DNA of 64,000 nt from an uncultured Dehalococcoidia bacterium (GTDB lineage: Bacteria; Chloroflexota; Dehalococcoidia; UBA6926), in NCBI GenBank assembly GCA_964653005.1, contig CAZZAN010000002.1, positions 213,975 through 277,974 of the forward strand. Reading direction: 5' to 3'. Made by a program: the position numbers and the translations under genes. This document shows positions 4,001 to 22,955 of this stretch, one piece after another (positions within the stretch are counted from its first letter, which is position 1; the number at the start of each line of letters is the position of its first letter). Under the pieces are notes generated by a model. The model was given only the letters and a program-made list of their open reading frames with translations. It ran no database searches and had not been told where the DNA came from.

Positions 4001-4450
4001 GGCGAGTTGCAGGGATTCCAGTTCGACCGGCTCAACCCCACCATCTTCGTCGAGAAGGACAAATTCGCGCATGTTCGTGACAAGAACAAGGCGGAAGCGG
4101 TTCCAGTATTTGCTGACCTGCGCACTATCCGCAGTCAGCCATGCGTCATCCGTCCAGGGCTTGACCTCAACGACGCCGTGCTCCGGGATTTGTCCCCCAC
4201 GCGGTTTGCTGCGCTGAATCTGGTTTGCGGAGTAGAGGCCGAAATCGGGGTGGCCCGAGCCGTCCATATCCCTGATGTCCTGTACGGCGAAGACCTTTGG
4301 GCGCAGGGTTTTGCCGACGGCATTCAGCAGATTGTTGAGCGCCGTGTAGTATGAACGCTCCTTCGTCGCCCCGGGCGAGTCATGGATGTTGCGAAGGTTT
4401 GTGAAGTACAGCTCGGCGGCGGCACGGAGTTTGAGGGTGTCGGCAGGCAT
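1088..4450 (-). CDS. MmeI-family (type IIL/IIG) fused restriction endonuclease / N6-adenine DNA methyltransferase
   Basis: N-terminal PD...ExK pattern (GHPDFGLYS...GVVEVKPW, then FRLVLVTNMREF), arranged as in MmeI. Methylase motifs: GVWYTPPEVVRYMV, motif I VLDPCCGTGAY, motif IV LGNPPYNGY. C-terminal GGYQVLKKWLSYRE resembles type ISP/IIG specificity domains. No helicase domain. Confidence 0.8.
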   Translation of the reverse strand: MPADTLKLRAAAELYFTNLRNIHDSPGATKERSYYTALNNLLNAVGKTLRPKVFAVQDIRDMDGSGHPDFGLYSANQIQRSKPRGGQIPEHGVVEVKPWTDDAWLTADSAQVSKYWNRFRLVLVTNMREFVLLDEDGGVEPVELESLQLAESQEEFERLLETPRAFANRMGVRLGEYLIRVLSYRASITEPRDLAHLLASYARDGLARVEATGDAPSLSAVRSALEDALGVRFEGDRGAAFFRSTLVQTLFYGVFSAWVIWARRSPGPNETFNWHETGWLLHVPVLQALFQQLSNPRQLQSLGLVELMDWTAAALNRVRRDEFFDRFSEGEAVQYFYEPFLQEFDPALRKQLGVWYTPPEVVRYMVARVDRALKDDLGIADGLAADNVYVLDPCCGTGAYVAEVLRRIYANLKRRGVGANLGALVKKAATERVFGFEIMPAPFVVAHLQVGLTMSNLEAPFSDDGTERTGIFLTNALTGWEPRSEEKKPLPFLELEEERDRADTVKQETPILVILGNPPYNGYAGMAVGEERELSNAYRTVKNVRRPEGQGLNELYVRFFRMAERRIAEKTGQGVVCFISNYSWLDGLSFTGMRERFLEAFDAIHIDSLNGDKFRTGKTTPDGKPDPSIFSTPEDPVGIQVGTAVATLIRKRDHKPTDTVGIRQLWGVAKPAELTKTADSEPDELYDNFQPDVALGLPFAPMTVSDNWSNWPALPELFSESFPGVKTSRDSFLVDIDEDQLRKRIAEYFDPEISDEEIGRRYPAVMRHASRFDARGVRSALHSRSNPQTRSGLVPYAYRPFDNRWLYWEAETKLLDEKRPEYKPHAFEGNIWFSTVPRIRRSAAESQSALTSHLASLHLNEWGSSMFPLWLRDDMLSTHDINGTPARPNLTHEAQAYLDKLGMGVEDLFYHTLAVLHDPAYREQNAGALRMEWPRIPLPGWPDGDEDGAADKLRESAAKGRQLAVLLDSDTSVDGVTTVPLRPEIAAIGVPTAVTGNQMNEADRFVTAGWGHLVQGGAVMPGQGRVEQRDYTAQERAVIGETTSTLGKKAFDVYLNDDAYWRNVPDAVWNYKLGGYQVLKKWLSYRESKVLGRSLKPDEVQHFTNTVRRIAAILLLTGGG

Positions 4451-4508: not shown

Positions 4509-4994
4509 TCAGCCCTTAATGGCGTTGTTCAACAGACTTCCGCAACTGACTGCCTTTATTGGAACCTCTTGTGACCTATATCGCACCTTGCTGGCTCGGA
4601 GATCATTTATCTCCTTCCGATGACCGCCGCTGTGGGCAACAATTGGACGGAATGCAATCTCTCGACCCCGAGAGACTAAGCTGGACACGATCTCTGCGCC
4701 TGCTTGGAGTTGCCTTACCACGACGCTAGCGTCTAACCTGCCTGCCTTTAGTTCGATAGCCGCGACCCAATTCTTGTCAGCGAAGAATAGGAAGTCGCAT
4801 TTGGTGTCTTGAGGCCCTACTGGTGCACCCTCACGGTCTAGATCGAGAATCAGGCGTGATGCCGGCGCCGAATTTAGCCTTAGGGAGCACCCGCCCTTTC
4901 GGAGGCGTGTAACGAGACACGCAGACTGTCCGCGCAAGCGTAACTCATCGTTGACGTCTGCAACCAGATCAGCCATCCAACCCGATCTCGTCAA
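4509..4994 (-). CDS. small predicted PD-(D/E)xK nuclease-fold protein
   Basis: 161-aa ORF overlapping the ATPase stop by 26 nt (8 nt if the start is M7 at 4976). Pattern LILDLD...KCDFLFFADKNWVAAIELKAG resembles a D...D...ExK restriction-endonuclease core. Confidence 0.45.
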   Translation of the reverse strand: MTRSGWMADLVADVNDELRLRGQSACLVTRLRKGGCSLRLNSAPASRLILDLDREGAPVGPQDTKCDFLFFADKNWVAAIELKAGRLDASVVVRQLQAGAEIVSSLVSRGREIAFRPIVAHSGGHRKEINDLRASKVRYRSQEVPIKAVSCGSLLNNAIKG

Positions 4995-6564
4995 TTCGTT
5001 GGTTGATTGTCACCCAGCGGTCATAAAGATCCTCGGTCACAAGGCCATAGCCCGCCTGATATGAACCTCTCTGGATGTCCAGGGGCATTTCGGTCACGTG
5101 AGACCCACCTGCACCTGTACCAGGCTCAAAAAGCCACGCACCCACTTGTTCAGGGCTCAGTGCGGCCTCCGCTCCTAGGATTCCTTCACGACTCTCGTCT
5201 GAAAGTTCCGATAGACGAACGAGGTTTGCCAGTTCTTCCAATACCCACTCACTGTGGGTTGTGAGTATGATCCGGACGCCCTGCTTTACCGTTAGTGCCA
5301 GCTGACGCAGGAATTCCACCTGTATGGCCGGGTGTAAGTGGGCTTCCGGTTCCTCAATAATCAGGACCTCGCCTTGATGCACGACATTACGCAAATAGAG
5401 GACAATTGGTGCTAATTCTGCCACCATTGACGAAACCGACATCAATGGCAGGTCTCGTCTCCATCCGGTCGGTCTGTAGGAATAAACAGGATAGCCCGTC
5501 GTGGATTCCTCTCTTTGAACTGTGCCCCCAAGAATCTCTTTCTGTAGTTTGGCCGTCATCTTGGCTTGTGATTCGGAAAACGTTGCATCACGTCGACCGC
5601 CCTTCTGAGGAGGGGTATCTTCCATGTAGAGGAGTTCCTCAAGGAAATCCGCCAAGACACCCGACAAAGTCGGCAACGCAGCTTCCCTGTCTATTCCGCC
5701 GCGTGAGGCCCTTCTATAGAGAGAGCTGACAACCACACGATGGGCATGCATGACCCCAGCTCGGTCCGCAGGCAGATAGTATGCGTTCTGAGTAATGGGA
5801 TCAAATACACGCGACCCAACCATGTTGGTCAGCTCCGCCAAATAACGTCTCAACAGGATAGGGTTCTCTAAATCATCGTCTCGCCTCAAGCGTCTCAATG
5901 ACAGAGACTGGAAGGCTGGCGATTCGCTGAGGTCACTCGTTCCGAGGGGAGCTGGCATGCCGGACGGGGTGTCAGGCACTGATGCGGACATCTCAACGCT
6001 GTCATCTGATAGAACGATTTCGTAAGAGAATCCGTCATCAACTGCGTTCGAGTCCCAGAAGGAGCGCCTCACTTGAACTCGTGCATCCCCTTTGGCCCTG
6101 TGTCTCTTGAGATTACTTGCCTCGTCAACTCCAAAGACGCGGGCTACTTCCGCCTCAATCTCATCGCTCAGTATTGTCAAACGCTCCAAATTGGGCCGTA
6201 CCAGTGATCTGGCAACTCTCTCAGGGACAATGAGCTCCTCAACGTGAGATTCATCTTCGGAAAGCAGTTCCTTGATCATTCGGGAAAGGCCGGCGGTGTC
6301 AGCTATCTCATTAATCGGCGCGGTTCCAAAGATCGAAGACCTCCGAAACCCCGGATAAAGGATTCTCTTCTCAAATCCGCCGCTAAAGAACTTGTGGAGG
6401 GCATAAATCAGAATTGCCAGGTAGGACTTGCCGGTATTGCTTGGGCCAACGAAAACGGTCAAAGGACGTAGGTCAACATTCGCGTCCTCAATTGGGCCAA
6501 AGTCGGACACGTTAATCTCAAGATTCCTGAACTCTGTCGAATTCATCTCTCTCTCGATGCTCAT
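4969..6564 (-). CDS. ABC/OLD-type (AAA_15/AAA_21-like) ATPase
   Basis: Walker A VFVGPSNTGKSYL. Walker B/D-loop region LIIEEPEAHLHPAIQ...ILTTHSEWVLEEL is typical of OLD/PtuA/AriA-like ATPases. No TOPRIM-like C-terminus seen. Confidence 0.75.
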   Translation of the reverse strand: MSIEREMNSTEFRNLEINVSDFGPIEDANVDLRPLTVFVGPSNTGKSYLAILIYALHKFFSGGFEKRILYPGFRRSSIFGTAPINEIADTAGLSRMIKELLSEDESHVEELIVPERVARSLVRPNLERLTILSDEIEAEVARVFGVDEASNLKRHRAKGDARVQVRRSFWDSNAVDDGFSYEIVLSDDSVEMSASVPDTPSGMPAPLGTSDLSESPAFQSLSLRRLRRDDDLENPILLRRYLAELTNMVGSRVFDPITQNAYYLPADRAGVMHAHRVVVSSLYRRASRGGIDREAALPTLSGVLADFLEELLYMEDTPPQKGGRRDATFSESQAKMTAKLQKEILGGTVQREESTTGYPVYSYRPTGWRRDLPLMSVSSMVAELAPIVLYLRNVVHQGEVLIIEEPEAHLHPAIQVEFLRQLALTVKQGVRIILTTHSEWVLEELANLVRLSELSDESREGILGAEAALSPEQVGAWLFEPGTGAGGSHVTEMPLDIQRGSYQAGYGLVTEDLYDRWVTINQRIDEIGLDG

Positions 6565-6807
6565 GCGGTCATTATAGGGTAGCAGGCATACGCTCGACAG
6601 CTACGTTTCTCAGGTTGGGGAAGCGGGAGAATCGATTGCCGCAAGCCCTGTTATGCAGGTCTTGACTGGTGCATTGTGGAGTATCCCTACTCCCGTTGTG
6701 GAAAGGTCGCTCGTGCTTGTCGAGGTCAACGCGCTTGTCCTTTCGCCTTCAATAAGCGAAGCGCGGCCCACTGACGGAATCAGTGGGCCGCGCGCCGATG
6801 AAATGTC

Positions 6808-7173
6808 CTACGCCGCCGCGGCATCCCCCCGCTGCATCAGCAGTGCCGAGCAGTCCCGCTGGATGACGTGGTGGACGTAGGTCTGGCCGGAGCCATCGTA
6901 GCCTGTACGGTAGGCAAATTCTACGTTCGCGCCGTGCGGCATGCGGCCACCAATACGGGCGGTCTGGCCGTTGTTCTCGCGCACGACCATCCCGGTGCGC
7001 TCTCCCTTTCGCCAGCCCAACACCTTGACCTCGGCTGGCATCACGCGCAGCTCGGCCTTCGACGGCTGGAACAGCACGGCGTGCAGCTTCCTGAGCACCG
7101 TGGGCGACGCTCTGCGCTGGCCGGACACGATCTGCGACATGTGCGCCGTACTGATGCCAGCGCGTCGCGCCAC
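6808..7173 (-). CDS. short XRE-like paralog: partial HTH plus conserved C-terminal domain
   Basis: 121 aa with a GTG start. Nearly identical over ~110 aa to the C-terminal third of the 12320-13168 product. The HTH looks N-terminally truncated. Confidence 0.55.
   Translation of the reverse strand: MARRAGISTAHMSQIVSGQRRASPTVLRKLHAVLFQPSKAELRVMPAEVKVLGWRKGERTGMVVRENNGQTARIGGRMPHGANVEFAYRTGYDGSGQTYVHHVIQRDCSALLMQRGDAAAA
6832..7171. repeat. ~340-bp direct repeat, left copy (3-prime part of XRE gene)
   Basis: Aligns by eye with 12339-12677 at roughly 90 percent nucleotide identity. Confidence 0.85.
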
Positions 7174-7218
7174 TTCATTCTGGGCTGTGCTAGCGGGCTC
7201 TGGTGGTCTGGTAGCACA

Positions 7219-9486
7219 CTACTGGTCAGTTTGGACGATCCCGCGAAAGCTTATAGAGCTCAGAATAGGGGACTGCCTCCCTGACCAGAATAGCGACAAG
7301 TGATGCTTGGCCCTGGTTGTTGCCACATAGAGGAGCTTCTGATTGAAGAGGGTCTCACGAAACGTATCATTGACACCCATGACAATGACCGCATCGTATT
7401 CCAGACCCTTTGCGTCGGGGATTCGGCCCAACACTGTACGGGTCTCTGCACGGTAATCATCCCCCAGCCTCGTTATGTCGGTTATGTCCCTGGCCGCGCA
7501 AAAGCGCTCGAACCTGGTGAGCTGAGCACTGTCCCTAACAAGAATCGCGATGGTGGAGTCTTCTAAACCCTCCAATGATCGGACGCTCTCCAGATGGGCA
7601 ACTACAGCTCGATGCATCACGCCCTCGTTGGAGAGGGCGTGGTACTCGACACGGTGCCCCTCTCGATCGAATGGAATAGGAGCAGGGATGTTGCTGTCGA
7701 AGGTCCGGAGAAGCCGGTTGTTGAACCTTGTGATGTGGACGTTGGCCCTATAGGAGGTGCGCGCGTGTTGGACCTTGATGTCCGCGCGCCCAAAGACCCG
7801 GTCCAGTTCCCGCCAAGACCTGATTCCCCGATGCAGGCCCAACCGCTGAGCCGTGTCTCCTAGAACAGTGAACCAGTTGTTGGCCGATGCTATTGTCAAC
7901 AGCCTGAACTCAATTGGAGATATATCCTGGGCCTCGTCCACTACGATGTGTCGGTAGCTGTTGGCGATTGTCCCGTTTAGCTGGTGGTCTAGGTAGGCCA
8001 AGGGACCGAGGTCGGAGTCGTCAAACCCGTTCTTCTTCGCATGGGCTGCAGATTCGGCCAGGGCATTGGCATCCTCTTCTGATATCTGGCCCCGGGACAG
8101 ACGCACCATGCGGTCAGGGTCAGACAGCATGGCAATATACTCTTCTCGGAAGTCGATGTGTTCCCATGCAGCGTTGCACCAGGGGGCTACCGTGTCGTCT
8201 CGAACATCTTTTAGGAACCTGACAGTCTCCTCTCTTCCTATTTGAGGGTTGCGCCTGCTCGGAGGCCAGAGCGCCTCGACGACTCGGTTGATAAACTCCT
8301 CCCGTCGCTGGTTCATCCGATCCACTGATGTTCTCTGAGGGATCACGTCGTTGAGGATTTGGCTCATGCGGGACTCCGGCATAGTCAGTCCCGACACTTG
8401 ATGGACCGGGGCAGAGAGAGACCGTGTTCTCCTCTTGATATCGCTACTTAATTCTCCGACGTGACGGTCGATCGCATCGGCCATCAACATCGATCCCTTG
8501 AAGAGTTCCGCCTGCTCGTTGAATCGCAATCTCGTACCAGGGGCAAGGAGGTTCTTCCAAATCCTAGCCTCCCTCCGTGGACGTCGGGACATCTGGCCCA
8601 TCATCCACTCGCTGAACCTGGTTTGCTGGACACGATCACGTACGCCTAGCTGAGGAAGTATGTCAGCGGCGTAATCCAAAAAGGCTTGTGAGGGTCCGAG
8701 GAAGAGAGTGGTGCCCGGCGTTGGCCGGTCCCTTTCGGGGAGGTCGTTGAAGGGGGACAGCAGGTAAGCGATTCGGTGAAAGCCGATGTCACTCTTGCCA
8801 CTGCCGGCGGCCCCCTGGACCACCAACACTTTGTCACTGGTATTGGAGATGCTCTCGTACTGTTCTGGTTCGATTGTTTCAACGATGACCCGTAGATGCC
8901 CATCCCCTGCCCCGGTCTGGCTGAGAGCCTCGGTAAGCGCCTTGTTAGGGGCGGCAGACGGACCGGTCAACATGCGGCGAAAAATGTCGTTGATATCCTC
9001 TAACCTCTGTCCGCGTATCCGGAGATAGCGCTTCAGGTCAACGACAGCCGACACCGGCCCCGCCGGAGCACTGTAGCCGTCCTGACGGCTCGGCGTGTAC
9101 CAGAGCTTTGCCACAGGGGCAGTCCAACTAGAGATTCCCTTCTCTGGTATGCTGGTGACCCCCAGATACACCGTCATCAGGCCAGGTGTGGCGTCCTCGG
9201 TCTCGACGCCTCCTGAACCCTGGGGCACTTCGGAAGGCCCGTCTGTCACCACGAAATCAAGCCGACCGAAGTAGGGCTGCTCGAACGCGGAATTCAGGGA
9301 GTCCTGTCTCTCCTCTAGTATCTTCTGTATTTGGTTGGCGGTTTCCTGATGTGCAGCTGTGGCCGGCATCCCCTGCTGGATCCTACTCCGGTACTCCGCG
9401 ATAAATCGAAGGACGTCATCGAGCTTGAGTTGCTCTTCCTCGAATGCTGGATTACGGCCATCGTCGGGGTCAGAGAGATGTAGCAT
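7219..9486 (-). CDS. SF1 UvrD/Rep-family helicase, HelD (helicase IV)-like
   Basis: HelD-like N-terminus (QPYFGRLDF, SSWTAPVAKLWY). Walker A VVQGAAGSGKS, motif II HIVVDEAQD, GLEYDAVIV, LYVATTRAKHHL. RBS AGGAGG lies before the ATG. Confidence 0.85.
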   Translation of the reverse strand: MLHLSDPDDGRNPAFEEEQLKLDDVLRFIAEYRSRIQQGMPATAAHQETANQIQKILEERQDSLNSAFEQPYFGRLDFVVTDGPSEVPQGSGGVETEDATPGLMTVYLGVTSIPEKGISSWTAPVAKLWYTPSRQDGYSAPAGPVSAVVDLKRYLRIRGQRLEDINDIFRRMLTGPSAAPNKALTEALSQTGAGDGHLRVIVETIEPEQYESISNTSDKVLVVQGAAGSGKSDIGFHRIAYLLSPFNDLPERDRPTPGTTLFLGPSQAFLDYAADILPQLGVRDRVQQTRFSEWMMGQMSRRPRREARIWKNLLAPGTRLRFNEQAELFKGSMLMADAIDRHVGELSSDIKRRTRSLSAPVHQVSGLTMPESRMSQILNDVIPQRTSVDRMNQRREEFINRVVEALWPPSRRNPQIGREETVRFLKDVRDDTVAPWCNAAWEHIDFREEYIAMLSDPDRMVRLSRGQISEEDANALAESAAHAKKNGFDDSDLGPLAYLDHQLNGTIANSYRHIVVDEAQDISPIEFRLLTIASANNWFTVLGDTAQRLGLHRGIRSWRELDRVFGRADIKVQHARTSYRANVHITRFNNRLLRTFDSNIPAPIPFDREGHRVEYHALSNEGVMHRAVVAHLESVRSLEGLEDSTIAILVRDSAQLTRFERFCAARDITDITRLGDDYRAETRTVLGRIPDAKGLEYDAVIVMGVNDTFRETLFNQKLLYVATTRAKHHLSLFWSGRQSPILSSISFRGIVQTDQ

Positions 9487-9572
9487 GGCGTAGGTCCTCC
9501 TGTCAGCGTCCCAAAGCTGCCTGCATCGGCCTCAGTATGTGCCGTTTGCATTTACGTTGTACGTTAGTCGTG

Positions 9573-9601
9573 ATTTTAGACGTAATTTAAGTTCTTGTCA
9601 A
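9573..9601 (-). promoter_or_regulatory. sigma70-like promoter for the helicase operon
   Basis: Minus strand reads TTGACA, 17-nt spacer, TAAAAT. Confidence 0.55.
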
Positions 9602-9624
9602 TGATGTACAGTACGTGCTATATT
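9595..9624 (+). promoter_or_regulatory. sigma70-like promoter for the DGQHR gene pair
   Basis: Plus strand reads TTGTCA, 18-nt spacer, TATATT. Its -35 box overlaps the -35 box of the divergent promoter. Confidence 0.5.
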
Positions 9625-9654
9625 ACGCGCAAGTTAAGACGAGGAGGCCATGTA

Positions 9655-10791
9655 ATGGTTGAACTGCAAGACCTTCGAATCCCCGCGCATCGTTTCCGCC
9701 AGGGAGGCCGGGAAGTGTATGCCTGTGTGCTCGACCTGCCCAACCTCAATGCCAGGCTCCCGGACCGAATCGATGACCAGGTCGTAAAGGAATCCAACCG
9801 GCAGCTCACACCGTCCCACGCACGACGTATACAGGCGTACTTGGCGGAGAGGGACGACTGGCTGCTCAGCGCACTCATGCTTGGCGTTCCCGCCGACGCG
9901 GTGGAGTTCCGCCCTTATGTCGAAGGTGATGGTGCGCCGATGCATGTTGGCGAGCTGCGGATTCAGGGCGAGTCCCCCGCCTTGATGAAGATGTTCGACG
10001 GGCAGCACCGGCGTCGAGCTATCAAGGACGTGCTCGCAGAACTGGAAGGCACTGTCCGGCGGGCCAATAAACTCTCCGCCTTGGAGGCGTGCTCACTGCC
10101 GATAATGTTGTATGTCGAAGATGACATCGCCTCGCTTCGCCAAATGTTTGCCGATGCTGCCCACACCAAGTCCATCGAGGCCAACGTGGTGGCTCGCTTT
10201 GACCTGCGCGATCCGTTCAACCTCGCCGCTGTCTGGCTAAAGGAGAATAGTGACCTGTTTGCTGGTCGCGTCGAAGAGGAGCGCGCCTCCGTCCCCCGCA
10301 CCAGCGAGTGCATCATTGCCATCAATCAGTTGTCCGTTACCCTCAAGACTCTTGAGGTCGGCTACAGAGGTCGGGTCAGCAAGGACCTCAGTAGCCAGTA
10401 CATGCTAGCCCTAGATGACTTGAACGAGCGGTGCTGGACTTGGGCCGATGACTTTATGCCGGCAGCCCGGGAAGAATACGAATGGCTGGTTGCTGGCGAC
10501 ATCGACAATTCTGAGATCCCGATGAACCGCGCAACGTCCTTGGCCTACAACGCCACCGTCATTCGCCTTTTCGCTGGCTGCTACTACGAGTGGACCAAAG
10601 ACGGCACCCCTTGGGAGCCGCTAGCCCAGTTCATCCGCAGTGCTTCTCTTGAGCCGGCCAGCGGGCAAGGTGCCCTCTTGGTAGACGCTGGTTTGGTCGC
10701 CGAGGGTGGGATTACGCCGTTTGCACGCGCACAGTTGGTGGGCTCCGCGATAGACCACATCGTTCGACGGGCAAGATCTGCCTCTGGTTAG
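9655..10791 (+). CDS. DGQHR-domain (DndB-like, ParB/Srx-fold) protein, paralog 1
   Basis: Motif MFDGQHRRRAIKD. Length (~378 aa) is typical of DndB-like proteins. Start chosen at ATG 9655 after RBS GAGGAGG; the upstream extension would overlap the promoter. Confidence 0.8.
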   Translation: MVELQDLRIPAHRFRQGGREVYACVLDLPNLNARLPDRIDDQVVKESNRQLTPSHARRIQAYLAERDDWLLSALMLGVPADAVEFRPYVEGDGAPMHVGELRIQGESPALMKMFDGQHRRRAIKDVLAELEGTVRRANKLSALEACSLPIMLYVEDDIASLRQMFADAAHTKSIEANVVARFDLRDPFNLAAVWLKENSDLFAGRVEEERASVPRTSECIIAINQLSVTLKTLEVGYRGRVSKDLSSQYMLALDDLNERCWTWADDFMPAAREEYEWLVAGDIDNSEIPMNRATSLAYNATVIRLFAGCYYEWTKDGTPWEPLAQFIRSASLEPASGQGALLVDAGLVAEGGITPFARAQLVGSAIDHIVRRARSASG

Positions 10792-10840
10792 CGGGGCCCG
10801 CCGCACATCAAAATCGAGAAGAACACCAGGAGGTTATGAA

Positions 10841-12034
10841 ATGGCACCGAAGATATCTCTTTCCCCAAGCCGCTATCAAGCCCAGCTTCCGGCGCACCGG
10901 TTCAGACAAGGCAACCGGGACGTGTATTACTTTACCCTTGACCTGGCCGCTCTGGACGGCCTGCTTCCCCAGCGGGTCGACGACTCCATGGTCAGGGAAG
11001 CCAACCGGCGCCTAACCCCCAGCCATGCGCGGAATATCCAACAATACCTTGAGACTCGAGACGACTGGCTGCTGGGAGCGCTGCTGCTTGGTATAGCGCC
11101 CGACGCCTTGGAATTCGAGCCTTACCAAGATGAGGGCGGAATCGAGATTAGCCCAAACTTCGGCGAGTTAAGCATCCTGACCAGCCGGGCTAACACCATG
11201 AGAATATTCGATGGCCAGCACCGCCGCAGGGCTATCCAAGACACCCTCGACAGGCTCGGCCAGGGAGATGTGCAAAGCGAAAAGCTCGGAGAACTTCATG
11301 GGTCGTCAGTGCCGATTATCCTCTATGCGGAGGACGATGTCCGCGCCTTACGCCAGATGTTCACGGACGCGTCGAGAACCAAAAGGATCGAGGCCAACGT
11401 GGTGACCAGATTCGACAAACGCGACCCCTTCAACCTTGCAGCGATGCATCTAGTAGAGAAGAGCCAACTGTTTGGCGGACGGGTTGAGATGGACTCCACA
11501 ACCGTTTCACGCAGTAGTCTGGCTCTAATCTCAGTCAACCAGCTCGCACAGGCCCTGAGAGTCATGAAGGTCGGATACAGGAGCCGTGTGAGCCGCCAAC
11601 AAAGCCAACTCTATATGCAGGAACTAGATGCCCTATACGAGAGCTGTCTGGACTGGAGCGACAACTTTCTACCAGGCGCCCGCTGGGAGTATGAAGGACT
11701 TCTTTCGGGCAACATCAGGGACGCGGACATCCCTGCACAACGTGTCGAATCGCTAGCCTACAGCACCACCTTTATACGGATCCTTGCCGGGTGCTACCAC
11801 GACTGGATGGAGGATAGAGACGACTGGACACCACTGGCCAACTTCCTCAAGGACGCCCGGCTGGAAACGGGCGGCGGCCGTGGAACCCTTCTGGTCGATG
11901 GCGGTGCCATGCTGCCCGGGGACAACGCCCCCAGTGGCCGTCGTCAGGAAGTAGAGAGTGCGATCAAATACATCAACCAGCACGCTAGCCAGGCAGCCGA
12001 ATCGGATGGCGACGATGATGAATTGCCCTGGTGA
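10841..12034 (+). CDS. DGQHR-domain (DndB-like, ParB/Srx-fold) protein, paralog 2
   Basis: Motif IFDGQHRRRAIQD. Colinear with paralog 1 (PAHRFRQG.R.VY, LTPSHAR.IQ.YL, RQMF.DA..TK.IEANVV). RBS AGGAGG. Confidence 0.8.
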   Translation: MAPKISLSPSRYQAQLPAHRFRQGNRDVYYFTLDLAALDGLLPQRVDDSMVREANRRLTPSHARNIQQYLETRDDWLLGALLLGIAPDALEFEPYQDEGGIEISPNFGELSILTSRANTMRIFDGQHRRRAIQDTLDRLGQGDVQSEKLGELHGSSVPIILYAEDDVRALRQMFTDASRTKRIEANVVTRFDKRDPFNLAAMHLVEKSQLFGGRVEMDSTTVSRSSLALISVNQLAQALRVMKVGYRSRVSRQQSQLYMQELDALYESCLDWSDNFLPGARWEYEGLLSGNIRDADIPAQRVESLAYSTTFIRILAGCYHDWMEDRDDWTPLANFLKDARLETGGGRGTLLVDGGAMLPGDNAPSGRRQEVESAIKYINQHASQAAESDGDDDELPW

Positions 12035-12226
12035 CACCGCAATACAAGAAGCGTGGCCTACGGTTTGTACAGATTGGGGTCGGCGAAAACGGTTACGGAC
12101 GTACCGTTGTTGCGCCTGCCCACGATGTCAGGAGTCCGCCGCCAGGGCTTGAGGAGATGCACAAGCGCGGTGTGCCAAGGCCTAGCCCTGCGGTGTTCTC
12201 CAGCCCACAGGTGGATGGAGAAGAAG

Positions 12227-12267
12227 GGATCGCGGGTCCTGTAGTCTGACTACAGAGCCCGCGATCC
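12227..12267. terminator. strong hairpin between convergent genes (possible bidirectional terminator)
   Basis: GGATCGCGGGTCCTGTAGT ctg ACTACAGAGCCCGCGATCC; 17 of 19 stem positions pair. Confidence 0.5.
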
Positions 12268-12319
12268 TATGATCCAACCTGGCTTGGCGCGAGAGCCGTT
12301 AGGCTGGGCGGCCAAGCTC

Positions 12320-13168
12320 CTACATCGGTTCCTTCCGCCGCGTCAGCAGCGCCGAGCAGTCCCGCTGGATGACGTGGTGGACGTAGGTCTGACCCGAGCC
12401 GTCGTAGCCAGTGCGGTAGGCGAACTCGACGTTCGCTCCATGCGGCATCCGTCCGCCAACGCGGGCGGTCTGGCCGTTATCTTCGCGCACTACCATCCCG
12501 GTGCGCTCTCCCTTGCGCCAGCCCAGCACCTTGACCTCTGCAGGCATCACCCGCAGCTCGGCCTTCGACGGCTGGAACAGCACGGCATGCAGCTTTCTGA
12601 GCACCGTGGGCGACGCTCTGCGCTGGCCGGACACGATCTGCGACATGTGCGCCGTACTGATGCCTGCACGTCGCGCCGCCTCGCTCTGGTTGATGCCATG
12701 TGCGTCCAGGCGGTCCCAGAGTACATGGATGTTGGTTTCTGCGCGTTCCGCCGACGCTGCCGTCACGGGCGCTTCCAGCGCCGCCTCCAGCCGCGCCCGC
12801 ACATTCACGGTCATGATCCTGTGGCCCCGCGACACCTGCGAGACGTAGGACTGCGACAAACCCGCACGCGCCGCCACATCGCGAATCGTCAGTCCCAACT
12901 CGCGGGCCCGCTCGCGGATGTACGTGCTCTCGCCGTCGACCGACTCCTGCCGCACGCGAACCGTGCCCTGTCCGGGAACCTCGCCCAGGACGGCCATGAC
13001 CTTCGCGCGCATCTTGGGCGTCCACTTCCGGTGCCCGTTCGCGATCTGCGACAGGTACCCCTTCGTCACGCCCATCCTCGCCGCCAGGTCTTGCATCGTG
13101 AGGCCCTGCCGCCGCGCGGCGGCCTGCGTCTCGGTCTCTGTCCTCTCGATCATCTTCCTCGTGGACAT
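12320..13168 (-). CDS. XRE-family regulator with three tandem HTH domains and a C-terminal domain
   Basis: Three HTH units (LAARMGVTKGYLSQIANGHR, VAARAGLSQSYVSQVSRGHR, AARRAGISTAHMSQIVSGQR). Start set at ATG 13168 after RBS AGGAGG; the track ORF extends to 13279. Confidence 0.75.
   Translation of the reverse strand: MSTRKMIERTETETQAAARRQGLTMQDLAARMGVTKGYLSQIANGHRKWTPKMRAKVMAVLGEVPGQGTVRVRQESVDGESTYIRERARELGLTIRDVAARAGLSQSYVSQVSRGHRIMTVNVRARLEAALEAPVTAASAERAETNIHVLWDRLDAHGINQSEAARRAGISTAHMSQIVSGQRRASPTVLRKLHAVLFQPSKAELRVMPAEVKVLGWRKGERTGMVVREDNGQTARVGGRMPHGANVEFAYRTGYDGSGQTYVHHVIQRDCSALLTRRKEPM
12339..12677. repeat. ~340-bp direct repeat, right copy (3-prime part of XRE gene)
   Basis: Aligns with 6832-7171. 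Confidence 0.85.
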
Positions 13169-13540
13169 CTCGCTTCCTCCTGAAAAGGGCAAAGCGGGAC
13201 GCCCCCGGAGGAGACAGTCCCGCTTGCTAAAGCCCCGGTGTCCGGGACTGTCTCCGTTGGTTTCGTGGCCATGCGTCATGGCCGATGCGGCGTCGCGTAT
13301 ACGTCACGCCGCGCGCGGACCTGCCTAGGATTCGCTCCTAGGTGAGTCCACAGATGACTTGTGACCCACACCGGCATCCGGGCGCAGGTCGAGTGCGGTC
13401 AATCAGGGAATGTCAAAGCCCGCCGACGGCCGGATGCCATGCCGTCACGCGGGATGAAGAGGGATTCAAGGGACGCAGTCGAGGACGTCACCGCATGGAT
13501 GCACGTCGCCACTGCCGCCCGAAAAGGAAACGCCGACCTC

Positions 13541-14290
13541 GGCTCAAGCCGCAGACCGGCGTTGTATGAAAGCCCGCCCAGCTACGACCTACGTCGTTTC
13601 GGCGGGCACGTTGAATCAGCCGAACCGCGAGGGGCGTTCCGGCTGTTGCATGAAGGGATCAGGCCGCGTCAGGCAACCCGTCCGTCAATTCCCGCTGTTC
13701 GAGGTGGCTCGGTTGAGTGAGCACTCCCATTCCGATTCCGCCTCTCGCCCCGGGGAGCGATGATTCCGTGTTTGCGATGAGAATGGAGAGCAAGTCGATC
13801 CTTCCTCATCACTCGCCGCGGAGGCGATGGTCCCGATTTCGGTCGCTCGGAGAGAATTCAATCGATCCCCGTACGAAGCCAGGTCGTTCGGGACAACCCA
13901 TCCAGGTTTCTAAGGTTGGAAACGCTGGAAAGCCAAACAATGAAGCCATTCTTCACACGGTTGATGCCATAGGCAAGAGTTTTCGGGCATCCCAGCCCAA
14001 ATTGCTTACTCTTGTTCAACTATTGCTTGCAGGAGTTAACAGGACGTGCTCAGACGTGTTCAGTGGTCGTTCCCACCGTCGGGACCAGACGCCGCAGCTT
14101 CAGCAAATGCCCCACGCCTCAGCCCCACCACGCCCCGAATGTGGCCAGCCGCCGGGTCCAGCGCAACAACTTGCGACGCAGAATCCTCCTTCGCACCGCA
14201 CGCAGATCCCGGAGCCGCCACTCCGTCACATGCCGCCGCCACTGGCCGTCGATGGGGTGATCGTCCGGCGGCAGGGTCAGTCCGTGCTCG
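13541..14290. repeat. ~0.75-kb repeated element, copy 1 (mostly non-coding)
   Basis: Conserved blocks are shared with 17424-18195, e.g. ttgcatgaagg.atcaggccg, caacccgtccgtcaattcccgctgttcgag, gcctctcgccccggggagcgatg, gtgtttgcgatgagaatggagagcaagtcgatcc, cttgcaggagtta. Confidence 0.7.
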
Positions 14291-14631
14291 TTCAACAGCG
14301 CCAGCTCCACCGTCAGCAGCCGCCTCTGCCGCTCCATCCACGACAGGGTCCTCCCGTCGACGGGATGTCCGCGCCTGAGCATCCGCCACTCCCTGACCAG
14401 CGGCCATGCGCGTCCGTACACATACGAATCGTCATTGGCTGGTTCGACCGTCACGATCTCGTCGTAGTCCCTCCGCGGGAAGGTCGGCCTCGTGTGTCTT
14501 GCCGGAGCTTCGATTGCCAATAGCACGACACCTGCCCGTCCGGCTGTCGCTTTCTTGACAAGAGACTCGCCGCCTAGCCCCCGCTCCAGAGTCCGGTCCA
14601 TCATGTCTTGTTCAGCGCGGTGCGCATCCAA
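14119..14631 (-). CDS. hypothetical protein (its 3-prime end lies inside repeat copy 1)
   Basis: 170-aa ORF with protein-like composition. Its C-terminal RAVRRRILRRKLLRWTRRLATFGAWWG has a frame-disrupted homolog (RMVRGRLPRRKLPRWVRRAATFGA) in copy 2. Confidence 0.4.
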   Translation of the reverse strand: MDAHRAEQDMMDRTLERGLGGESLVKKATAGRAGVVLLAIEAPARHTRPTFPRRDYDEIVTVEPANDDSYVYGRAWPLVREWRMLRRGHPVDGRTLSWMERQRRLLTVELALLNEHGLTLPPDDHPIDGQWRRHVTEWRLRDLRAVRRRILRRKLLRWTRRLATFGAWWG

Positions 14632-14794
14632 AGACTTTCGCTCGCCGTCAGCAGCGACTGCCAGGTTCTCAACCGCGCCCTGAAGCCGTCCAGCCAGTGG
14701 TCCATCGCTGCGACATGAAAGACGTAACGTCCTCTGATTTCTCCTGAGACAATGCCTCCCGCACCTACCATTCCAGTAGGGTGAAGGTGCCCCG

Positions 14795-14968
14795 CTAGTT
14801 CCGTCCCGTCAGAGCGCGATTGCAGTCCACGCAGGCCTGCACTAGGTTGGCGAGGCGATCGCACCCGCCGCGTTAGAGCAGAATCACATGCTCCCAGTTG
14901 GGCTCGGGTCCAAAATGGGTGAACGCCTCGGCGCAGTACGCGCACTGCGCCCGTTCGCGCTCCATCAT
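14795..14968 (-). pseudogene. HNH endonuclease remnant with in-frame stops
   Basis: One frame reads MMERERAQCAYCAEAFTHFGPEPNWEHVILL*RGGCDRLANLVQACVDCNRALTGRN*. This fits the C.YC...EH...GG...NLV.AC..CN pattern, interrupted by TAA and ended by TAG. Confidence 0.5.
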
Positions 14969-15035
14969 GGCGACGGTTCCTCTCTCCCTCTCTGTACTCC
15001 CACTCTAAGGCTACTGACCCTGACTCAAATGCACA

Positions 15036-16322
15036 TCAGCGAACGCACCACATGGTTCTGTCTCCAGCTCCCCATGACCTTCGGCTAGGGAATACGTAAC
15101 TGGTCGCTCTTGTCGGGCACTGGGATTGGGCAATTCTAGCGAGCCTAGTGTCGCTCGGATAGCTCGCTGCTGCCGGGAAATCATACTTACCAACGATGAA
15201 TATAGAGTTCGAAGTGCTACATGGTGCGCCATTCAGCGTTATGGGATCCAGGCACCCACCAACCCTGGGGGCCGGGGTCGGTGTTCGCGTTGCAAACGGA
15301 GTTGATGTGGCTTGAGAAACACTGGTTGGGGCTCTAGCCGGGACGGGGGTGTCATCGGGCGCAGTAGCGAGTCTGCACAAAGAGCCAAGCAAGACTACGA
15401 TGCCAATCATAATGATGGTGCCAATTATGTTGGCTACACATCCACTGCCAGCACCTCTTGACGGAGACCCAACTCCACCGCTGTTAGGTGTCCTACCTAC
15501 ACGGCGTCCAATGTCCTCTGCGTATAGCCGCAACACTCTATTAGCTTCCCGCCCTGCGGCATCGACAACAGAATCGATAAAGCGCTTGTCACGAAGCACC
15601 TGTGGCGTAACCACACCCCCGTGCGCGCGAATAGACCTATTCACTGACTGCCTTATCGCTCCGTACGCGTGATTCCACGCCGGTCCCGGCAGGCTCTCTT
15701 GAATTCTCTGACGCCCCAAAGCGAAGCCGATGACAGCGGCAACGGAGCCGAGAATATTTACTGCAATGTCTACCGCAAAACTCTCGGTAAAGGTCTGTGC
15801 CCGTTCTGCTAGTGCGTGACGGTACGCCAATCTCGCCGATTCAAACTGCACGGCGCTCCAAGCGGCATCCAAAGCCGCCTGCCGTATTTCGGATTCACGC
15901 CTCCCTGTGAGCGCTAATTCCAGAGCAACTTCATAACCAGCGTGCCAAACACCAGTAGGGATGTCTTCAATTCGGCGGATTCTCTCGGCCCAGTGATTAG
16001 ACATGCGTGTCGCGATATTAAAACCTAGACTGAAAGCCATCTGGCCTAAGACCATAACCGCCATCGCCTTGGCGCGGTCTAGTTCTTCAGCTGACACTCC
16101 AAGAGTCTGGTGCGCCCGGTCATACGCCGCCCTTTGTTCATCATCCCGCAGAACTTCATACGCCTCGTTGATCTCCTGCATCCGATCAACGGCGTCCGGG
16201 CTCTTATTGACATCGGGGTGGAACTCTCGCGCCCGCTGACGAAACGCAGTGCGGATGTCCTCGAATGAGGCGTCCTCAGAGACGCCAAGAATCTCGTAGT
16301 ACGTCTGGTTCTGGGAGGTCAT
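15036..16322 (-). CDS. J-domain (DnaJ-like) membrane protein
   Basis: N-terminal J domain ([33 protein letters not shown], with HPD). A central helical region is followed by one TM segment ([20 protein letters not shown]) and a Pro/Thr/Cys-containing C-terminal tail. Confidence 0.8.
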
Positions 16323-16353
16323 CTGTGAACGACCGGATACAGCGGATACTTAT

Positions 16354-17046
16354 CTATCGCCTGAAGAGTCCCCAGAGGCGGGACAGCCCGCCCTTGTTAT
16401 GAGTCTCTACTCCAGTCTCCTCAGCAGTTTTTGTTACGGCATTCACTGTGATGCTCAATGGGGCAATGGCTTCCGCAGCCTTTTGTGCCGCCATGGTCTT
16501 CATCGACTGGAAGAATTCGTCAACAATTATCTGGCCGTCCTGGAGCTCTTTGGCTTTCATTCTCCCTCCCAGCATTGCTCCGTCACGCGCGGCCTCAAAT
16601 ACGTCAACCCAAACGGATGCTTCCGGCATCCACGTGGAACGTGCAGCCCCAAGCTTTCTCCCTATCAGAGACGCCCAAGCTCCCAGGCTTGTGGCTGCAA
16701 GTTCTATCGCCAGTGACTGAACCATTCGGTCCGGGATTCTTAGGTGGAATTCCTCCCGGATTTGATCTCGTTGTGCTTTATCAGTCAAGAGTTCCGGTAA
16801 TTCCCGCGCGATTGCATCCACGACATTATCGATACTTCCATCAATAATGACCGATCGCAGAGCAATGTCATAAATGACAAACCAAATGTCATGGTTCTCC
16901 TCATCCAGGATAGCTCTGCCGGCAGGTGTCCCACCGGTGCGCGAGTTCATTTCGTGGCCCTGGCCGGTCGAGAACGCAAGTACCCCAAGCGCCGCCACAG
17001 CGTGTTGATGCGGGGTTATTCCAGTTTCGTCGCTATACGAATCCAT
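16354..17046 (-). CDS. hypothetical protein related to the central region of the J-domain protein
   Basis: 230-aa ORF with RBS AAGGAG. Segments AVAALGVLAFSTG and SLAIELAATSLGAWASLIGRKLG parallel [15 protein letters not shown] and [23 protein letters not shown] in the downstream protein. Confidence 0.6.
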   Translation of the reverse strand: MDSYSDETGITPHQHAVAALGVLAFSTGQGHEMNSRTGGTPAGRAILDEENHDIWFVIYDIALRSVIIDGSIDNVVDAIARELPELLTDKAQRDQIREEFHLRIPDRMVQSLAIELAATSLGAWASLIGRKLGAARSTWMPEASVWVDVFEAARDGAMLGGRMKAKELQDGQIIVDEFFQSMKTMAAQKAAEAIAPLSITVNAVTKTAEETGVETHNKGGLSRLWGLFRR

Positions 17047-17083
17047 CTTTCCCCGCTGCCTAATGAATCTCCTTGATTAACTA

Positions 17084-21068: not shown

Positions 21069-21293
21069 TCAGTATTCCTTTAGTTCCGAGTACAAGACTG
21101 TGAGTTTGCCTCAGTCTACTGCCGGCCGTCGCCGCAAGCATCTGGAACGATCCGGCAAGCAAAAGTCTGCCTCTGGTAAGCACTTTCTCCAGCCATGCAC
21201 TCAGACCTCTTGACGCCTCTCGTATAGTTATGACAAGTATCGATGAGGTCTAATTTTCCTCGCCATCACCTGCGAATCGAAGGAGGTCCAACA

Positions 21294-22949: not shown

Positions 22950-22955
22950 CGGCCC
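22880..22955 (-). tRNA. tRNA-Lys (anticodon UUU)
   Basis: 76-nt cloverleaf: acceptor GGGCCGT/GCGGCCC, D arm GCTC/GAGC, anticodon loop CTTTTAA, T arm CCGGG-TTCGACC-CCCGG, encoded CCA. Close to the E. coli lysT layout. Confidence 0.9.

Follow-up and report, generated by a model that had tools for sequence, protein, structure and literature searches.

A mobile cassette of a HelD-like ATPase and two DGQHR paralogues as a candidate undescribed defence-type module in uncultured bacteria

Does a helicase gene lying back to back with two tandem DGQHR genes define a single functional entity and, if so, is that entity a defence system that has eluded description? The question arises from a 64,000-nucleotide stretch of DNA from an uncultured Dehalococcoidia bacterium (henceforth the window), for which a first-pass annotation had proposed such a module, placed it under XRE control and noted restriction-modification (RM) and GmrSD genes nearby. 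The helicase and both DGQHR genes, with all the features ascribed to them, are present at the positions given (Table 1).

Table 1. Features of the cassette and its surroundings in the window.
Feature	Position	Strand	Basis or remark
Type IIG/ISP restriction-methylase	1088-4450
AAA_15 ATPase	4969-6564
Truncated relic of the triple-HTH gene's second allele, 121-aa ORF	6808-7173	-	half of last HTH + C-terminal domain
Direct repeat (~360 bp), left copy	about 6823-7183	.	repeat search + alignment
HelD-like SF1 ATPase, 755 aa	7219-9486	-	Pfam UvrD domains, NCBIfam HelD_BACSU, PDB 6wvk_H, Foldseek
Divergent control region, 168 bp	9487-9654	.	back-to-back sigma-70-like promoters; promoter-like site scan + alignment
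DG1, first-position DGQHR (DndB-like, ParB/Srx-fold), 378 aa, without HEPN	9655-10791	+	PF14072, TIGR03187
DG2, second-position DGQHR paralogue, 397 aa	10841-12034	+	PF14072, TIGR03187
Intact triple-HTH XRE-family gene, convergent with DG2	12320-13279	-	three HTH_3 stretches (Pfam)
Direct repeat (~360 bp), right copy	12329-12689	.	repeat search + alignment
GmrSD_N protein	18981-20729
Large serine recombinase	21243-22949		abuts tRNA-Lys
tRNA-Lys	22880-22955

Three genes with common boundaries

The HelD-like assignment of the helicase is borne out by profile searches: the ORF carries Pfam UvrD-helicase, UvrD_C and AAA_19 matches, scores 204.9 bits against NCBIfam HelD_BACSU and finds its best PDB sequence match in B. 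subtilis HelD (6wvk_H, E 2e-38). The top seven Foldseek matches are all HelD–RNA polymerase complexes (best E 6e-25), and in both sequence and structure matches HelD proteins bound to RNA polymerase surpass UvrD, PcrA and Rep by ∼10 orders of magnitude. Both Walker motifs are intact (A, GAAGSGKS; B, VVDEAQD). At the N terminus a helical hairpin is predicted, followed by a PYFGRLD motif, with model confidence low across residues 66-205 of the N-terminal region. The cassette HelD may bind RNA polymerase.

DG1 and DG2 both match Pfam DndB PF14072 (122 and 141 bits) and exceed the cut-off of 58.85 for TIGR03187 DGQHR (89.9 and 104.8 bits), in line with their original naming. Aligned over 372 residues they share 52% identity (E 1e-126) – more than 50 percent had been estimated by eye. 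They contain MFDGQHRRRAIKD and IFDGQHRRRAIQD, and both retain an invariant, putatively nucleotide-binding DGQHRRR motif. The mechanical DG1 ORF starts at TTG 9595; the likely start, however, is ATG 9655, as judged from an upstream GAGGAGG Shine-Dalgarno sequence, from orthologues of 378 aa and from the alignment with DG2, which begins there. Orthologues of DG1 fall into more than 120 clusters at ≥66% identity. The AF2 model of DG2 has a pLDDT of 78.7, with a confident C-terminal helical domain; no PDB structural neighbour was found for it, so that the argument for a ParB-like switch is one of family assignment only. No effector domain (nuclease or HEPN) is recognisable in the window's version of the cassette.

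The unit formed by the minus-strand helicase gene and the two plus-strand DGQHR genes (7219-12037) is not peculiar to this genome. All six relatives sampled from the helicase side at ≥70% identity contain the same three-gene cassette, and one further locus was reached from the DGQHR side; the arrangement, a HelD of 754-755 aa divergent from a DG1 of 378-379 aa and a DG2 of 397 aa, is thus found in the window and at seven other loci (L001, L069, L085, L089, L090, L091 and L092), the carriers being uncultured genome bins only. DNA similarity to the window starts at 7206-7262 and runs to 12034-12159, its limits coinciding with the stop codons of helD and DG2. The flanks are different at every locus and abound in genes of mobile elements and of restriction, among them resolvases, Tn3 and DDE transposases, integrases, RM, Mrr and Vsr. 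In a helicase tree the cassette helicases form a single monophyletic clade, every member of which adjoins a DGQHR pair at the loci examined. The three genes are inherited and transferred jointly: the cassette is self-contained and horizontally mobile, and HelD, DG1 and DG2 very probably constitute one functional unit.

Expression is predicted to proceed from overlapping divergent promoters, TTGTCA-18-TATATT on the plus strand towards DG1 and TTGACA-17-TAAAAT on the minus strand towards helD, which have in common a palindromic −35 element (CTTGTCAAT, 9594-9602). These are the two best promoter-like sites between 6600 and 13500 (11/12 and 10/12 matches). Three elements are conserved in the eight cassette loci: the CTTGTCAAG core, the −10 element and a Shine-Dalgarno sequence, whose GAGGAGG precedes the DG1 ATG.

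The surrounding island

Two paralogous XRE-type genes had been described as bracketing the module and controlling it. Both are present, but one is a truncated copy that forms part of a direct DNA repeat: the two ∼360-bp copies are ∼90% identical, bracket the cassette and are spaced 5506 bp apart. The 121-aa product is 95% identical to residues 202-317 of the triple-HTH protein (26 of the differing codons are synonymous and six non-synonymous), and the ORF is 5′-truncated, beginning in the middle of the third HTH (Pfam HTH_3 match from profile position 16). No XRE homologue occurs at the other seven divergent-cassette loci or at four loci in which a DGQHR pair and helD share a strand; the only triple-HTH homologue in 93 loci (L063) lies ∼4 kb from a distant DGQHR gene, beside an orf268 homologue. 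With one copy truncated, the intact gene convergent with DG2 and no XRE gene at these loci, XRE control is not supported, and the XRE genes belong to the backbone of the surrounding integrative island rather than to the cassette.

Otherwise the neighbourhood is as first depicted, with restriction, abortive-infection and mobile-element genes around the unit. The reported lack of dndA/C/D/E, ssp, dpd and PAPS-reductase-like genes also held: tblastn with Salmonella DndC, DndD and DndE (E ≤ 0.01) returned no match in the whole 64 kb, and no PAPS-reductase, TGT or Ssp was found among the island ORFs scanned with Pfam, NCBIfam and PADLOC. DndC/D/E are likewise missing within 7-10 kb in 93 loci, and neither TGT nor PAPS-reductase families occur among the annotated neighbours. 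The cassette is independent of dnd and dpd genes and bears no relation to clusters for phosphorothioation or deazaguanine modification. No PADLOC system matches the cassette and we found no described system in the literature that does, in keeping with the annotation's view that no named defence system has this composition; it is credible that the HelD and DGQHR-pair cassette is an undescribed defence-type module.

DGQHR pairs with and without HelD

Tandem DGQHR pairs in fixed gene order were found at 39 loci, mostly in Dehalococcoidia genome bins, whereas viral contigs, phage records and plasmid records are essentially devoid of the family. In a tree the first- and second-position genes split into two clades whose subtrees broadly agree, the window's DG1 and DG2 falling into the first and second respectively, which indicates that they are old, co-inherited paralogues. 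In 24 of the 39 pairs the first gene also encodes HEPN at the N terminus, its RNxxxH motif being intact (aRNxvxHP is conserved across these 24 long DG1 proteins), and some pairs include Mrr_N. A genome scan detected no helicase within 10 kb of 34 of 38 pairs, from which it follows that the pair can work without HelD in cis. The proposal of a three-gene module therefore needs qualification: the unit is conserved, but the family is built around the DGQHR pair, most often with HEPN.

HelD joins the pair only sometimes, yet it does so repeatedly and in two different layouts. In the second layout pair and helD share a strand, the pair coming immediately before helD (L017, L038, L043 and L084; DG1 bears HEPN in all except L017). 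These helD genes belong to a sister helicase clade in which they are interleaved with stand-alone helD genes and, given the separate clades, the association arose more than once. A replacement event also speaks for the link: L017 and L088 agree in gene order to either side, and exactly at the start of helD a 4.7-kb segment (IS transposase, DG1 and DG2) takes the place of one of 1.3 kb. In a census of Pfam and PADLOC families among 150 genes flanking 38 pairs, UvrD/HelD tied with DDE transposase and AAA_22 as the commonest neighbour (four loci each) and was alone among them in recurring at a fixed position beside the pair. For a single-copy gene this is, on a rough estimate, far above chance (binomial P ∼1e-7 at p = 0.001 per locus).

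Could the DGQHR pair alone be the system, a sensor usually equipped with a HEPN effector, and HelD a loose accessory or passenger? The helD site might tolerate or attract insertions, one such accident having been fixed as the divergent cassette. Besides the preponderance of pairs lacking HelD in cis, DG1 of the closest pairs without HelD (L002-L005) is 67-80% identical to that of the window, and in L017 the pair arrived with an IS transposase, so that part of the linkage to helD could be due to insertion-site effects. We nonetheless consider this reading unlikely: the window and seven other loci have retained both the shared promoters and the exact boundaries over a helicase divergence of 70-85%, linkage occurs in two layouts in separate helicase lineages, and a passenger would not survive in every copy across differing flanks.

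The best explanation, towards which we lean by a little, is a mobile three-gene cassette in which an NTP-gated DGQHR heteromer and a dedicated HelD take part in conflict with invading DNA. DG1 and DG2 would probably form a heteromeric DNA-binding switch of the ParB/Srx type, gated by NTP. The ancient paralogy and fixed gene order fit the heteromer suggested at the outset, while the sensor-plus-motor mechanism is something that we infer. In most relatives the effector may be the HEPN RNase on the first paralogue; in the window's lineage the pair would act instead with its dedicated HelD paralogue. HelD, an ATPase, inserts itself into RNA polymerase and strips the enzyme from nucleic acids. Recognition by the heteromer of invader DNA (phage or plasmid), or of a nucleotide signal, might thus be coupled by HelD to RNA polymerase, either evicting polymerase from marked DNA or reporting polymerase that is stalled or hijacked. 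We regard a role in defence or mobile-element conflict as an even call and this specific RNA-polymerase-directed mechanism as doubtful. The association with defence islands is not universal, as HelD-free pairs are often flanked on both sides by housekeeping genes (clpC, ffh and nuo, for example).

HelR removes rifamycins from RNA polymerase. The cassette could, by analogy, be a polymerase rescue or resistance module, its HelD displacing antibiotics or inhibitor proteins and the DGQHR pair repressing the shared promoter in response to NTP. The HelD family assignment, the relatedness of the helicase to NCBIfam HelR (an RNA polymerase recycling motor), the palindrome at the shared −35 and the precedent of DndB, a described ATP-modulated repressor (PMC4507180; PMC10853773), are all consistent with this. 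However, for most pairs there would be no helD to regulate, an apparently active HEPN RNase is present in many and Mrr_N in some, and two paralogues of 380-400 aa make an unusually heavy regulator; the idea is distinctly improbable. Still less probable is a toxin-antitoxin-like addiction module, in which one paralogue would neutralise the other, a HEPN or ParB-fold toxin, and so stabilise islands without an immune role: two genes kept in fixed order on mobile elements, HEPN in most first-position genes and frequent transposase neighbours would suit it, but both paralogues retain the same invariant motifs, the window's DG1 has no HEPN and the dedicated HelD is left unexplained. That the pair serves a dnd, dpd or ssp-like modification system encoded elsewhere, as DndB and DpdB do in cis, is suggested by its DGQHR domain and by the requirement for DpdB in base insertion (PMC12839542), but is very improbable given the lack of DndC/D/E within 7-10 kb in 93 loci and in the window's 64 kb, the lack of TGT and PAPS-reductase families among annotated neighbours, scores far under both equivalog cut-offs and a pair that travels alone across phyla.

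Comparison with known systems

DndB, the regulator/ATPase of dndABCDE, shares the DGQHR (PF14072) domain of a ParB/Srx-fold nucleotide-binding protein, and the DG proteins are about 26-31% identical to Salmonella and plasmid DndB over ∼230-280 residues. They differ in falling short of the equivalog cut-off of 328 (with 53.8 and 63.8 bits), in matching just positions 1-217/245 of a 338-position profile, and in being a fixed paralogue pair without dndC/D/E, linked to HelD or HEPN. The dpd system, which modifies DNA with 7-deazaguanine, has a ParB-like ATPase in DpdB, likewise a member of the DGQHR-domain proteins and one whose ATPase serves a system directed at DNA (PMC12839542); DG1 and DG2 reach only 20 and 29 bits against its cut-off of 300, and neither DpdA (TGT) nor DpdC was seen among neighbours.

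The type IV restriction enzymes GmrSD, SspE and BrxU (DUF262 ParB-like NTPase plus DUF1524 HNH) also place a ParB-fold NTPase sensor module in defence islands, a GmrSD_N protein lies in the same island as the cassette, and DUF262 and DGQHR have been treated as related families (PMC4619093; PMC3632139). The cassette, in contrast, has no HNH or other nuclease domain and comprises separate paralogues rather than a fusion; profile comparison with the island's GmrSD_N protein gave no signal. Gabija (GajA OLD-family nuclease and GajB UvrD-like helicase) was considered on account of partial PADLOC matches between the helicase core and GajB models (E 6e-14) and the AAA_15 ATPase 650 bp from the helicase, and was rejected: the matches span shared SF1 motifs only, and the AAA_15 gene, absent from other cassette loci, pairs with its own 161-aa partner, both occurring together also in L060.

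The Swt1-like HEPN-ParB fusions listed by Anantharaman et al. 2013 (PMC3710099) have exactly the architecture of the common DG1 form in relatives, RNxxxH motif included; that listing is of the domain fusion only, with neither paralogue pair nor HelD link, and the window's DG1 is without HEPN. Finally, HelD and HelR (B. subtilis HelD, M. smegmatis HelD and Streptomyces HelR) are the best sequence and structure matches of the cassette helicase and have in common with it length, SF1 core, predicted N-terminal hairpin and PYFGRLD motif. The cassette helicase nevertheless scores below equivalog cut-offs (204.9 versus 419), and its clade stands apart: 49-58% identical to other Dehalococcoidia HelD genes and, at the loci examined, always divergent from a DGQHR pair and on mobile DNA.

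Components of the cassette and its transfer as a unit

The first-pass annotation had proposed a previously undescribed system in which a HelD-like helicase is divergent from two tandem DGQHR paralogues under XRE control. The open reading frames are present as it described them (see table), and profile searches with DndB, TIGR03187 and HelD models bear out the identities, that of the helicase in a broad sense. The DGQHR proteins, here DG1 and DG2, pass the cut-offs of both TIGR03187 (89.9 and 104.8 bits; cut-off 58.85) and Pfam DndB PF14072 (122 and 141 bits; cut-off 29.1), and are 52% identical to each other over 372 residues. The stretch FDGQHRRRA is invariant among 76 DGQHR sequences, and the same invariant residues, DGQHRR-A included, are kept in first- and second-position paralogues alike. 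An AlphaFold model of DG2 (pLDDT 78.7) had no match with E < 0.5 in a search of PDB structures. A HEPN-like Rx6H motif (RILAGCYH) in the C-terminal domain of DG2 was considered and dropped: DG1 has Y at that site and the motif is not conserved.

Against the HelD_BACSU equivalog (NF041464) the helicase scores 204.9 bits in two stretches, below the curated cut-off of 419; the NCBIfam HelR and mycobacterial HelD models score lower still, and those for PcrA, UvrD, Rep and helicase IV reach just 35–46 bits. By sequence its best PDB match is Bacillus subtilis HelD (6wvk_H, E 2e-38, residues 57–306 and 471–745); Mycobacterium smegmatis HelD (6yxu_H) matches at E 4e-24 and UvrD at E 1e-5. The AlphaFold2 model has a mean pLDDT of 67 and is poor at residues 66–205 (below 35), yet the top seven Foldseek matches to it are all HelD–RNA polymerase complexes (best E 6e-25, TM ∼0.5), with UvrD, PcrA and Rep next at 1e-14 or worse (6e-15 is also given for UvrD). 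The ATPase motifs are intact (Walker A GAAGSGKS, Walker B VVDEAQD). An N-terminal helical hairpin (residues 13–38 and 47–68), a possible counterpart of the coiled-coil arm that in HelD reaches into the secondary channel of RNA polymerase, is predicted at pLDDT 42–60; the alignment with B. subtilis HelD starts at residue 57. The cassette helicase is a member of the HelD family in the broad sense, nearer to RNA-polymerase-bound HelD than to UvrD, Rep or PcrA. HelD, according to the titles of PDB entries 6wvk and 6yxu, inserts into RNA polymerase and releases nucleic acids.

Features of the window and of related loci from other genomes or records (L handles)
Feature	Position	Strand	Remarks
AAA_15 ATPase, 531 aa, and downstream 161-aa partner	4509-6564	minus	best PADLOC match PD-T4-4_A, E 5e-33
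121-aa ORF	6808-7173		
∼360-bp direct repeat, two copies	about 6823-7183 and 12329-12689		∼90% identical, 5506 bp apart
HelD-like SF1 ATPase, 755 aa	7219-9486	minus	UvrD-type Pfam domains, NCBIfam HelD_BACSU
DG1, DGQHR protein, 378 aa	9655-10791 (ATG start)	plus	TIGR03187, Pfam DndB PF14072
DG2, DGQHR protein, 397 aa	10841-12034	plus	TIGR03187, Pfam DndB PF14072
Triple-HTH protein	12320-13279		
Second direct repeat, two copies	13632-14052 and 17482-17980		78-85% identical, spacing ∼3.85-3.93 kb
268-aa ORF (orf268)	13717-14523		start within second repeat
428-aa protein with N-terminal DnaJ domain only, then 230-aa ORF	15036-17046	minus	inside defence island
220-aa ORF	17516-18178		start within second repeat; paralogue of orf268
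Large serine recombinase, 568 aa	21243-22949		3′ end overlaps tRNA-Lys(UUU), opposite strand
tRNA-Lys(UUU)	22880-22955		where G+C rises
L060, AAA_15 gene and adjacent partner	14881-16961		39% and 31% identity
L083, small genes and stand-alone helD	5911-9241		
L086, same	∼6669-9262		
L087, same	6216-9241		
L088, same	6159-9349		
L046, L047, L050, L058, loci of distant lone DGQHR genes with following gene	∼11220-13520		35-47% identity (DGQHR)
L059, L060, L062-L064, loci of distant lone DGQHR genes with following genes	∼11050-13620 and the next gene		35-47% identity (DGQHR)
L094, 544-aa "DndB" (Stutzerimonas stutzeri plasmid NZ_CP073106.1)	8503-10137		
L095, second DGQHR-domain gene and GmrSD gene (Salmonella Infantis)	14182-17065		

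The three-gene module holds beyond this genome. All six helicases looked up at 70% identity or more are divergent from a DGQHR pair of 378 or 379 and 397 residues (loci L069, L085, L089, L090, L091 and L092), and a further locus reached from the DGQHR side (L001) has the same divergent cassette. Similarity at the DNA level runs from the helD stop to the DG2 stop: L069 corresponds to positions 7219–12037 of the window at 86% nucleotide identity, L089 to positions 7206–12035. The flanks, by contrast, are unlike in every locus and include resolvases, Tn3 and DDE transposase genes, an integrase, type I and type III-like restriction-modification genes, Mrr, Vsr and DUF1156/DUF499. Within the 168-bp spacer stand, back to back, the two sites of the region that best resemble sigma-70-like promoters; both predicted divergent promoters use one palindromic −35 element (consensus CTTGTCAAG), which is kept, with the −10 element and a GAGGAGG ribosome-binding site, in eight loci. 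These comparisons show the three genes to be co-inherited and transferred together, with a common architecture of predicted promoters. That one helicase cluster carries an NCBI name from a Truepera genome bin suggests transfer across phyla. A metagenome scan with the helicase alignment returned one close locus (L069), the other 13 being ordinary HelD at 25–33% identity.

The DGQHR pair and its association with helD

Scanning one genome per species for relatives of DG2 gave 68 loci, nearly all in genome bins of Dehalococcoidia, other Chloroflexota, Latescibacterota, Binatia, Nitrospinota and Thermodesulfobacteriota; several isolate names among them we take to resemble sponge-metagenome bins. 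Clustering of the ORFs from all loci yielded 39 tandem pairs, that of the window counted, and here the first-pass interpretation needs revision, for the core of the family is the pair, not the trio. In a neighbour-joining tree all first-position genes group in a single clade and all second-position genes in a second one, and the subtrees of the two clades broadly match. The duplication is thus old and both genes have been inherited together, a pattern to be expected of an obligate heteromer. The family is small, its profile matching 922 clusters at E ≤ 1e-3 and 135 at E ≤ 1e-30 among 1.84 billion representative proteins. Second-position proteins at 59–62% identity to DG2 (P0098, P0100–P0102, P0104 and P0111) carry a C-terminal Mrr_N winged-helix domain, a domain tied to DNA recognition in Mrr-type restriction enzymes.

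The first gene is ∼525–590 codons long in 24 of the 39 pairs, owing to an N-terminal Swt1-like HEPN domain; its RNxxxH motif is kept in these relatives, and in most of the family the domain is apparently active. This HEPN–DGQHR fusion was listed by Anantharaman et al. 2013, with no system described (PMC3710099). A monophyletic HEPN-free branch includes the DG1 of the window, in whose 378 residues Pfam finds no N-terminal HEPN domain of the Rx4-6H type.

A helicase lies next door in 4 of the 38 other pairs of the genome scan, divergent in L001 and downstream of the pair on the same strand in L017, L038 and L043. Among 150 flanking genes HelD ties with DDE transposase and AAA_22 as the commonest family (four loci each), and of these three it alone holds a fixed position beside the pair; for a single-copy gene such adjacency is far beyond chance. 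All-against-all clustering of 1432 flanking ORFs found no conserved partner beside the pair other than HelD. In the helicase tree the dedicated cassette clade has a sister clade, 49–58% identical to it, in which stand-alone helD genes (L083, L086, L087 and L088) are mixed with helD genes that have DG1–DG2 directly upstream (L017, L038, L043 and L084). DG1 bears HEPN in L038, L043 and L084; that of L017 has 411 residues and no HEPN. Between loci L017 and L088 synteny is kept on either side, and a 4.7-kb segment (IS transposase, DG1, DG2) stands in the former in place of a 1.3-kb segment with two small genes, exactly at the start of helD.

The pair has thus joined helD several times and in two layouts, which argues for a functional link between them. 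The best-surviving rival is that the pair is autonomous and HelD a passenger: on its side are the HelD-free pairs, many of which sit among housekeeping genes, and against it the repeated joining. The pattern is also consistent with HelD-free pairs drawing on a resident HelD supplied in trans; one genome holds both a pair (L016) and a stand-alone helD (L083).

Ahead of the stand-alone helD genes in Dehalococcoidia lie two small genes that are conserved. One encodes a protein of ∼145–240 residues whose HARE-HTH match is borderline and whose C-terminal tail is strongly acidic, features that recall the delta subunit of RNA polymerase; the other encodes a Cys/His-rich protein of ∼91–102 residues. 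Exactly these genes are swapped for the DGQHR pair in L017.

Other DGQHR genes turned up in different company. Each of the distant lone DGQHR genes is followed on the same strand by a gene for a ∼760–860-aa protein without Pfam match, of two separate families; in the second group (L059, L060 and L062–L064) a SPPY-motif DNA methylase comes next. These sets may be further undescribed DGQHR-based systems. The plasmid-borne "DndB" gene of L094 has no dnd genes nearby, its neighbourhood including parA and a gene for a cytosine methylase; with similar matches on 22 Pseudomonas plasmids, orphan "DndB" is common on plasmids of cultured bacteria too. In L095 the second DGQHR-domain gene directly follows dndBCDE and precedes a full GmrSD (DUF262 + DUF1524) gene.

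The surrounding island and its repeats

The cassette lies in a region of G+C 0.55–0.59 that extends from position 1 to ∼22.9 kb (one 2-kb bin at 0.64), against mostly 0.60–0.64 in the rest of the window. The serine recombinase/tRNA-Lys site is probably the integration end of this island; the other end was not found within the window. Besides the cassette the island holds a type IIG/ISP restriction-methylase, the AAA_15 ATPase with its 161-aa partner, the DnaJ-domain protein and a GmrSD_N protein. Neither the 161-aa partner nor the 230-aa ORF has a family match, and tRNA-Lys is the only non-coding RNA or tandem repeat found in positions 1–24000. The AAA_15 gene and its partner are adjacent again in L060, and so form a separate conserved two-gene module.

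The proposed XRE control does not stand. The 121-aa ORF matches the final 116 residues of the triple-HTH protein at 95% identity, and its Pfam HTH_3 match starts at profile position 16, inside the third HTH; it is thus a 5′-truncated relic. In the DNA this resemblance takes the form of the ∼360-bp direct repeat, whose copies bracket the three genes. No homologue of the triple-HTH gene occurs at any other cassette locus. Its sole relative, in L063, is separated by ∼4 kb from a distant DGQHR gene and adjoins a homologue of orf268, the divergent neighbour of the triple-HTH gene in the window, which marks the latter as island backbone. The two copies of the ∼360-bp repeat differ in 32 codons, 26 synonymously and six non-synonymously; each must hence have evolved as a functional gene in its own lineage before recombination brought the two together, which rules out a fresh target-site duplication. 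The truncated left copy thus stems from another allele of the triple-HTH gene, functional at one time, and this suggests that variants of the island have recombined. A 5.5-kb circle could be excised if the two copies recombined with each other.

A second pair of direct repeats spans the starts of orf268 and its 220-aa paralogue, neither of which has a Pfam, NCBIfam or PADLOC match; it is a homologue of these that adjoins the XRE homologue in L063.

Possible function and comparison with known systems

Proteins of the ParB/Srx fold bind NTPs and serve as switches, nickases or NTPases. Among relatives of DG1 and DG2, a DndB-like protein binds ATP and GTP (bioRxiv 10.1101/2025.10.10.680097) and DpdB is an ATPase (PMC12839542). 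The reading we prefer is that DG1 and DG2 form an NTP-gated heteromer for the recognition of foreign DNA or of a nucleotide signal. The output would be the HEPN RNase in most lineages, and in that of the window a dedicated HelD that acts on RNA polymerase. A speculative proposal, which we consider rather improbable, is that of an immunity or conflict system acting via RNA polymerase: a ParB/Srx-fold heterodimer of DG1 and DG2 would sense invading DNA or a nucleotide alarm, and the dedicated HelD paralogue would strip or trap host polymerase there, silencing that DNA.

Were it true, this would be the first case of a defence module centred on a motor that binds polymerase, and orphan DGQHR proteins would gain a role beyond DNA modification. 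To our knowledge DGQHR/DndB-like proteins have been described solely as accessory parts of DNA-modification systems, and HelD solely as a factor that serves RNA polymerase in housekeeping or in antibiotic resistance. A cassette in which HelD and DGQHR proteins are repeatedly brought together, and which crosses phyla and sits in defence islands, would offer a testable role for orphan pairs, the HEPN-fused majority included, and would suggest that the sensing or silencing of invading DNA has a hub in RNA polymerase. At just 4.8 kb and with its own predicted promoters, it can be synthesised and tested directly.

In the next rival the pair would regulate a module that, like HelR, serves polymerase rescue or resistance; the likeness of the helicase to polymerase-bound HelD accords with it. 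The pair might also be an addiction module, a reading that its fixed gene order on mobile DNA would suit and that leaves the dedicated HelD unexplained. Weakest is service to modification genes encoded elsewhere, which the DndB-like domain recalls and the neighbourhoods do not favour, PAPS-reductase families being absent among annotated neighbours of related loci.

The asserted independence from dnd genes is upheld: tblastn with Salmonella DndC, DndD and DndE gave no hits in the 64-kb window and 93 related loci, and DG1 and DG2 score 53.8 and 63.8 bits against the DndB equivalog TIGR03233 (cut-off 328). Membership of dpd was likewise rejected on scores and gene context, with 20 and 29 bits against DpdB (NF041060, cut-off 300) and no TGT or DUF328 family among island ORFs and the annotated neighbours of 10 related loci. 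PADLOC returned for the cassette weak DndB and DpdB and partial GajB matches only. Gabija was set aside, the helicase matching only the GajB core in part and a GajA-type partner being absent: the nearby AAA_15 protein, best matched by PD-T4-4_A, has no TOPRIM domain in Pfam, has its own partner and is not conserved with the cassette. Type IV restriction of the GmrSD type was rejected as well, DG1 and DG2 having no GmrSD_N or GmrSD_C hits in Pfam; hhalign of the DGQHR alignment, itself of low diversity, against the island GmrSD_N protein gave no signal (probability 0.1). A phage or plasmid origin was discarded, since phage and plasmid collections held canonical DndB only, at no more than 28% identity, and viral contigs one distant hit to the family.

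Full-text literature searches found no description of HelD with a DGQHR pair, in keeping with the first-pass view that no named defence system has this composition; as far as we found, it is undescribed. The HEPN-ParB architecture, a Swt1-like HEPN domain fused to DGQHR, was compared as well: 24 of 39 first-position genes are such fusions, and the DG1 of the window has no HEPN.
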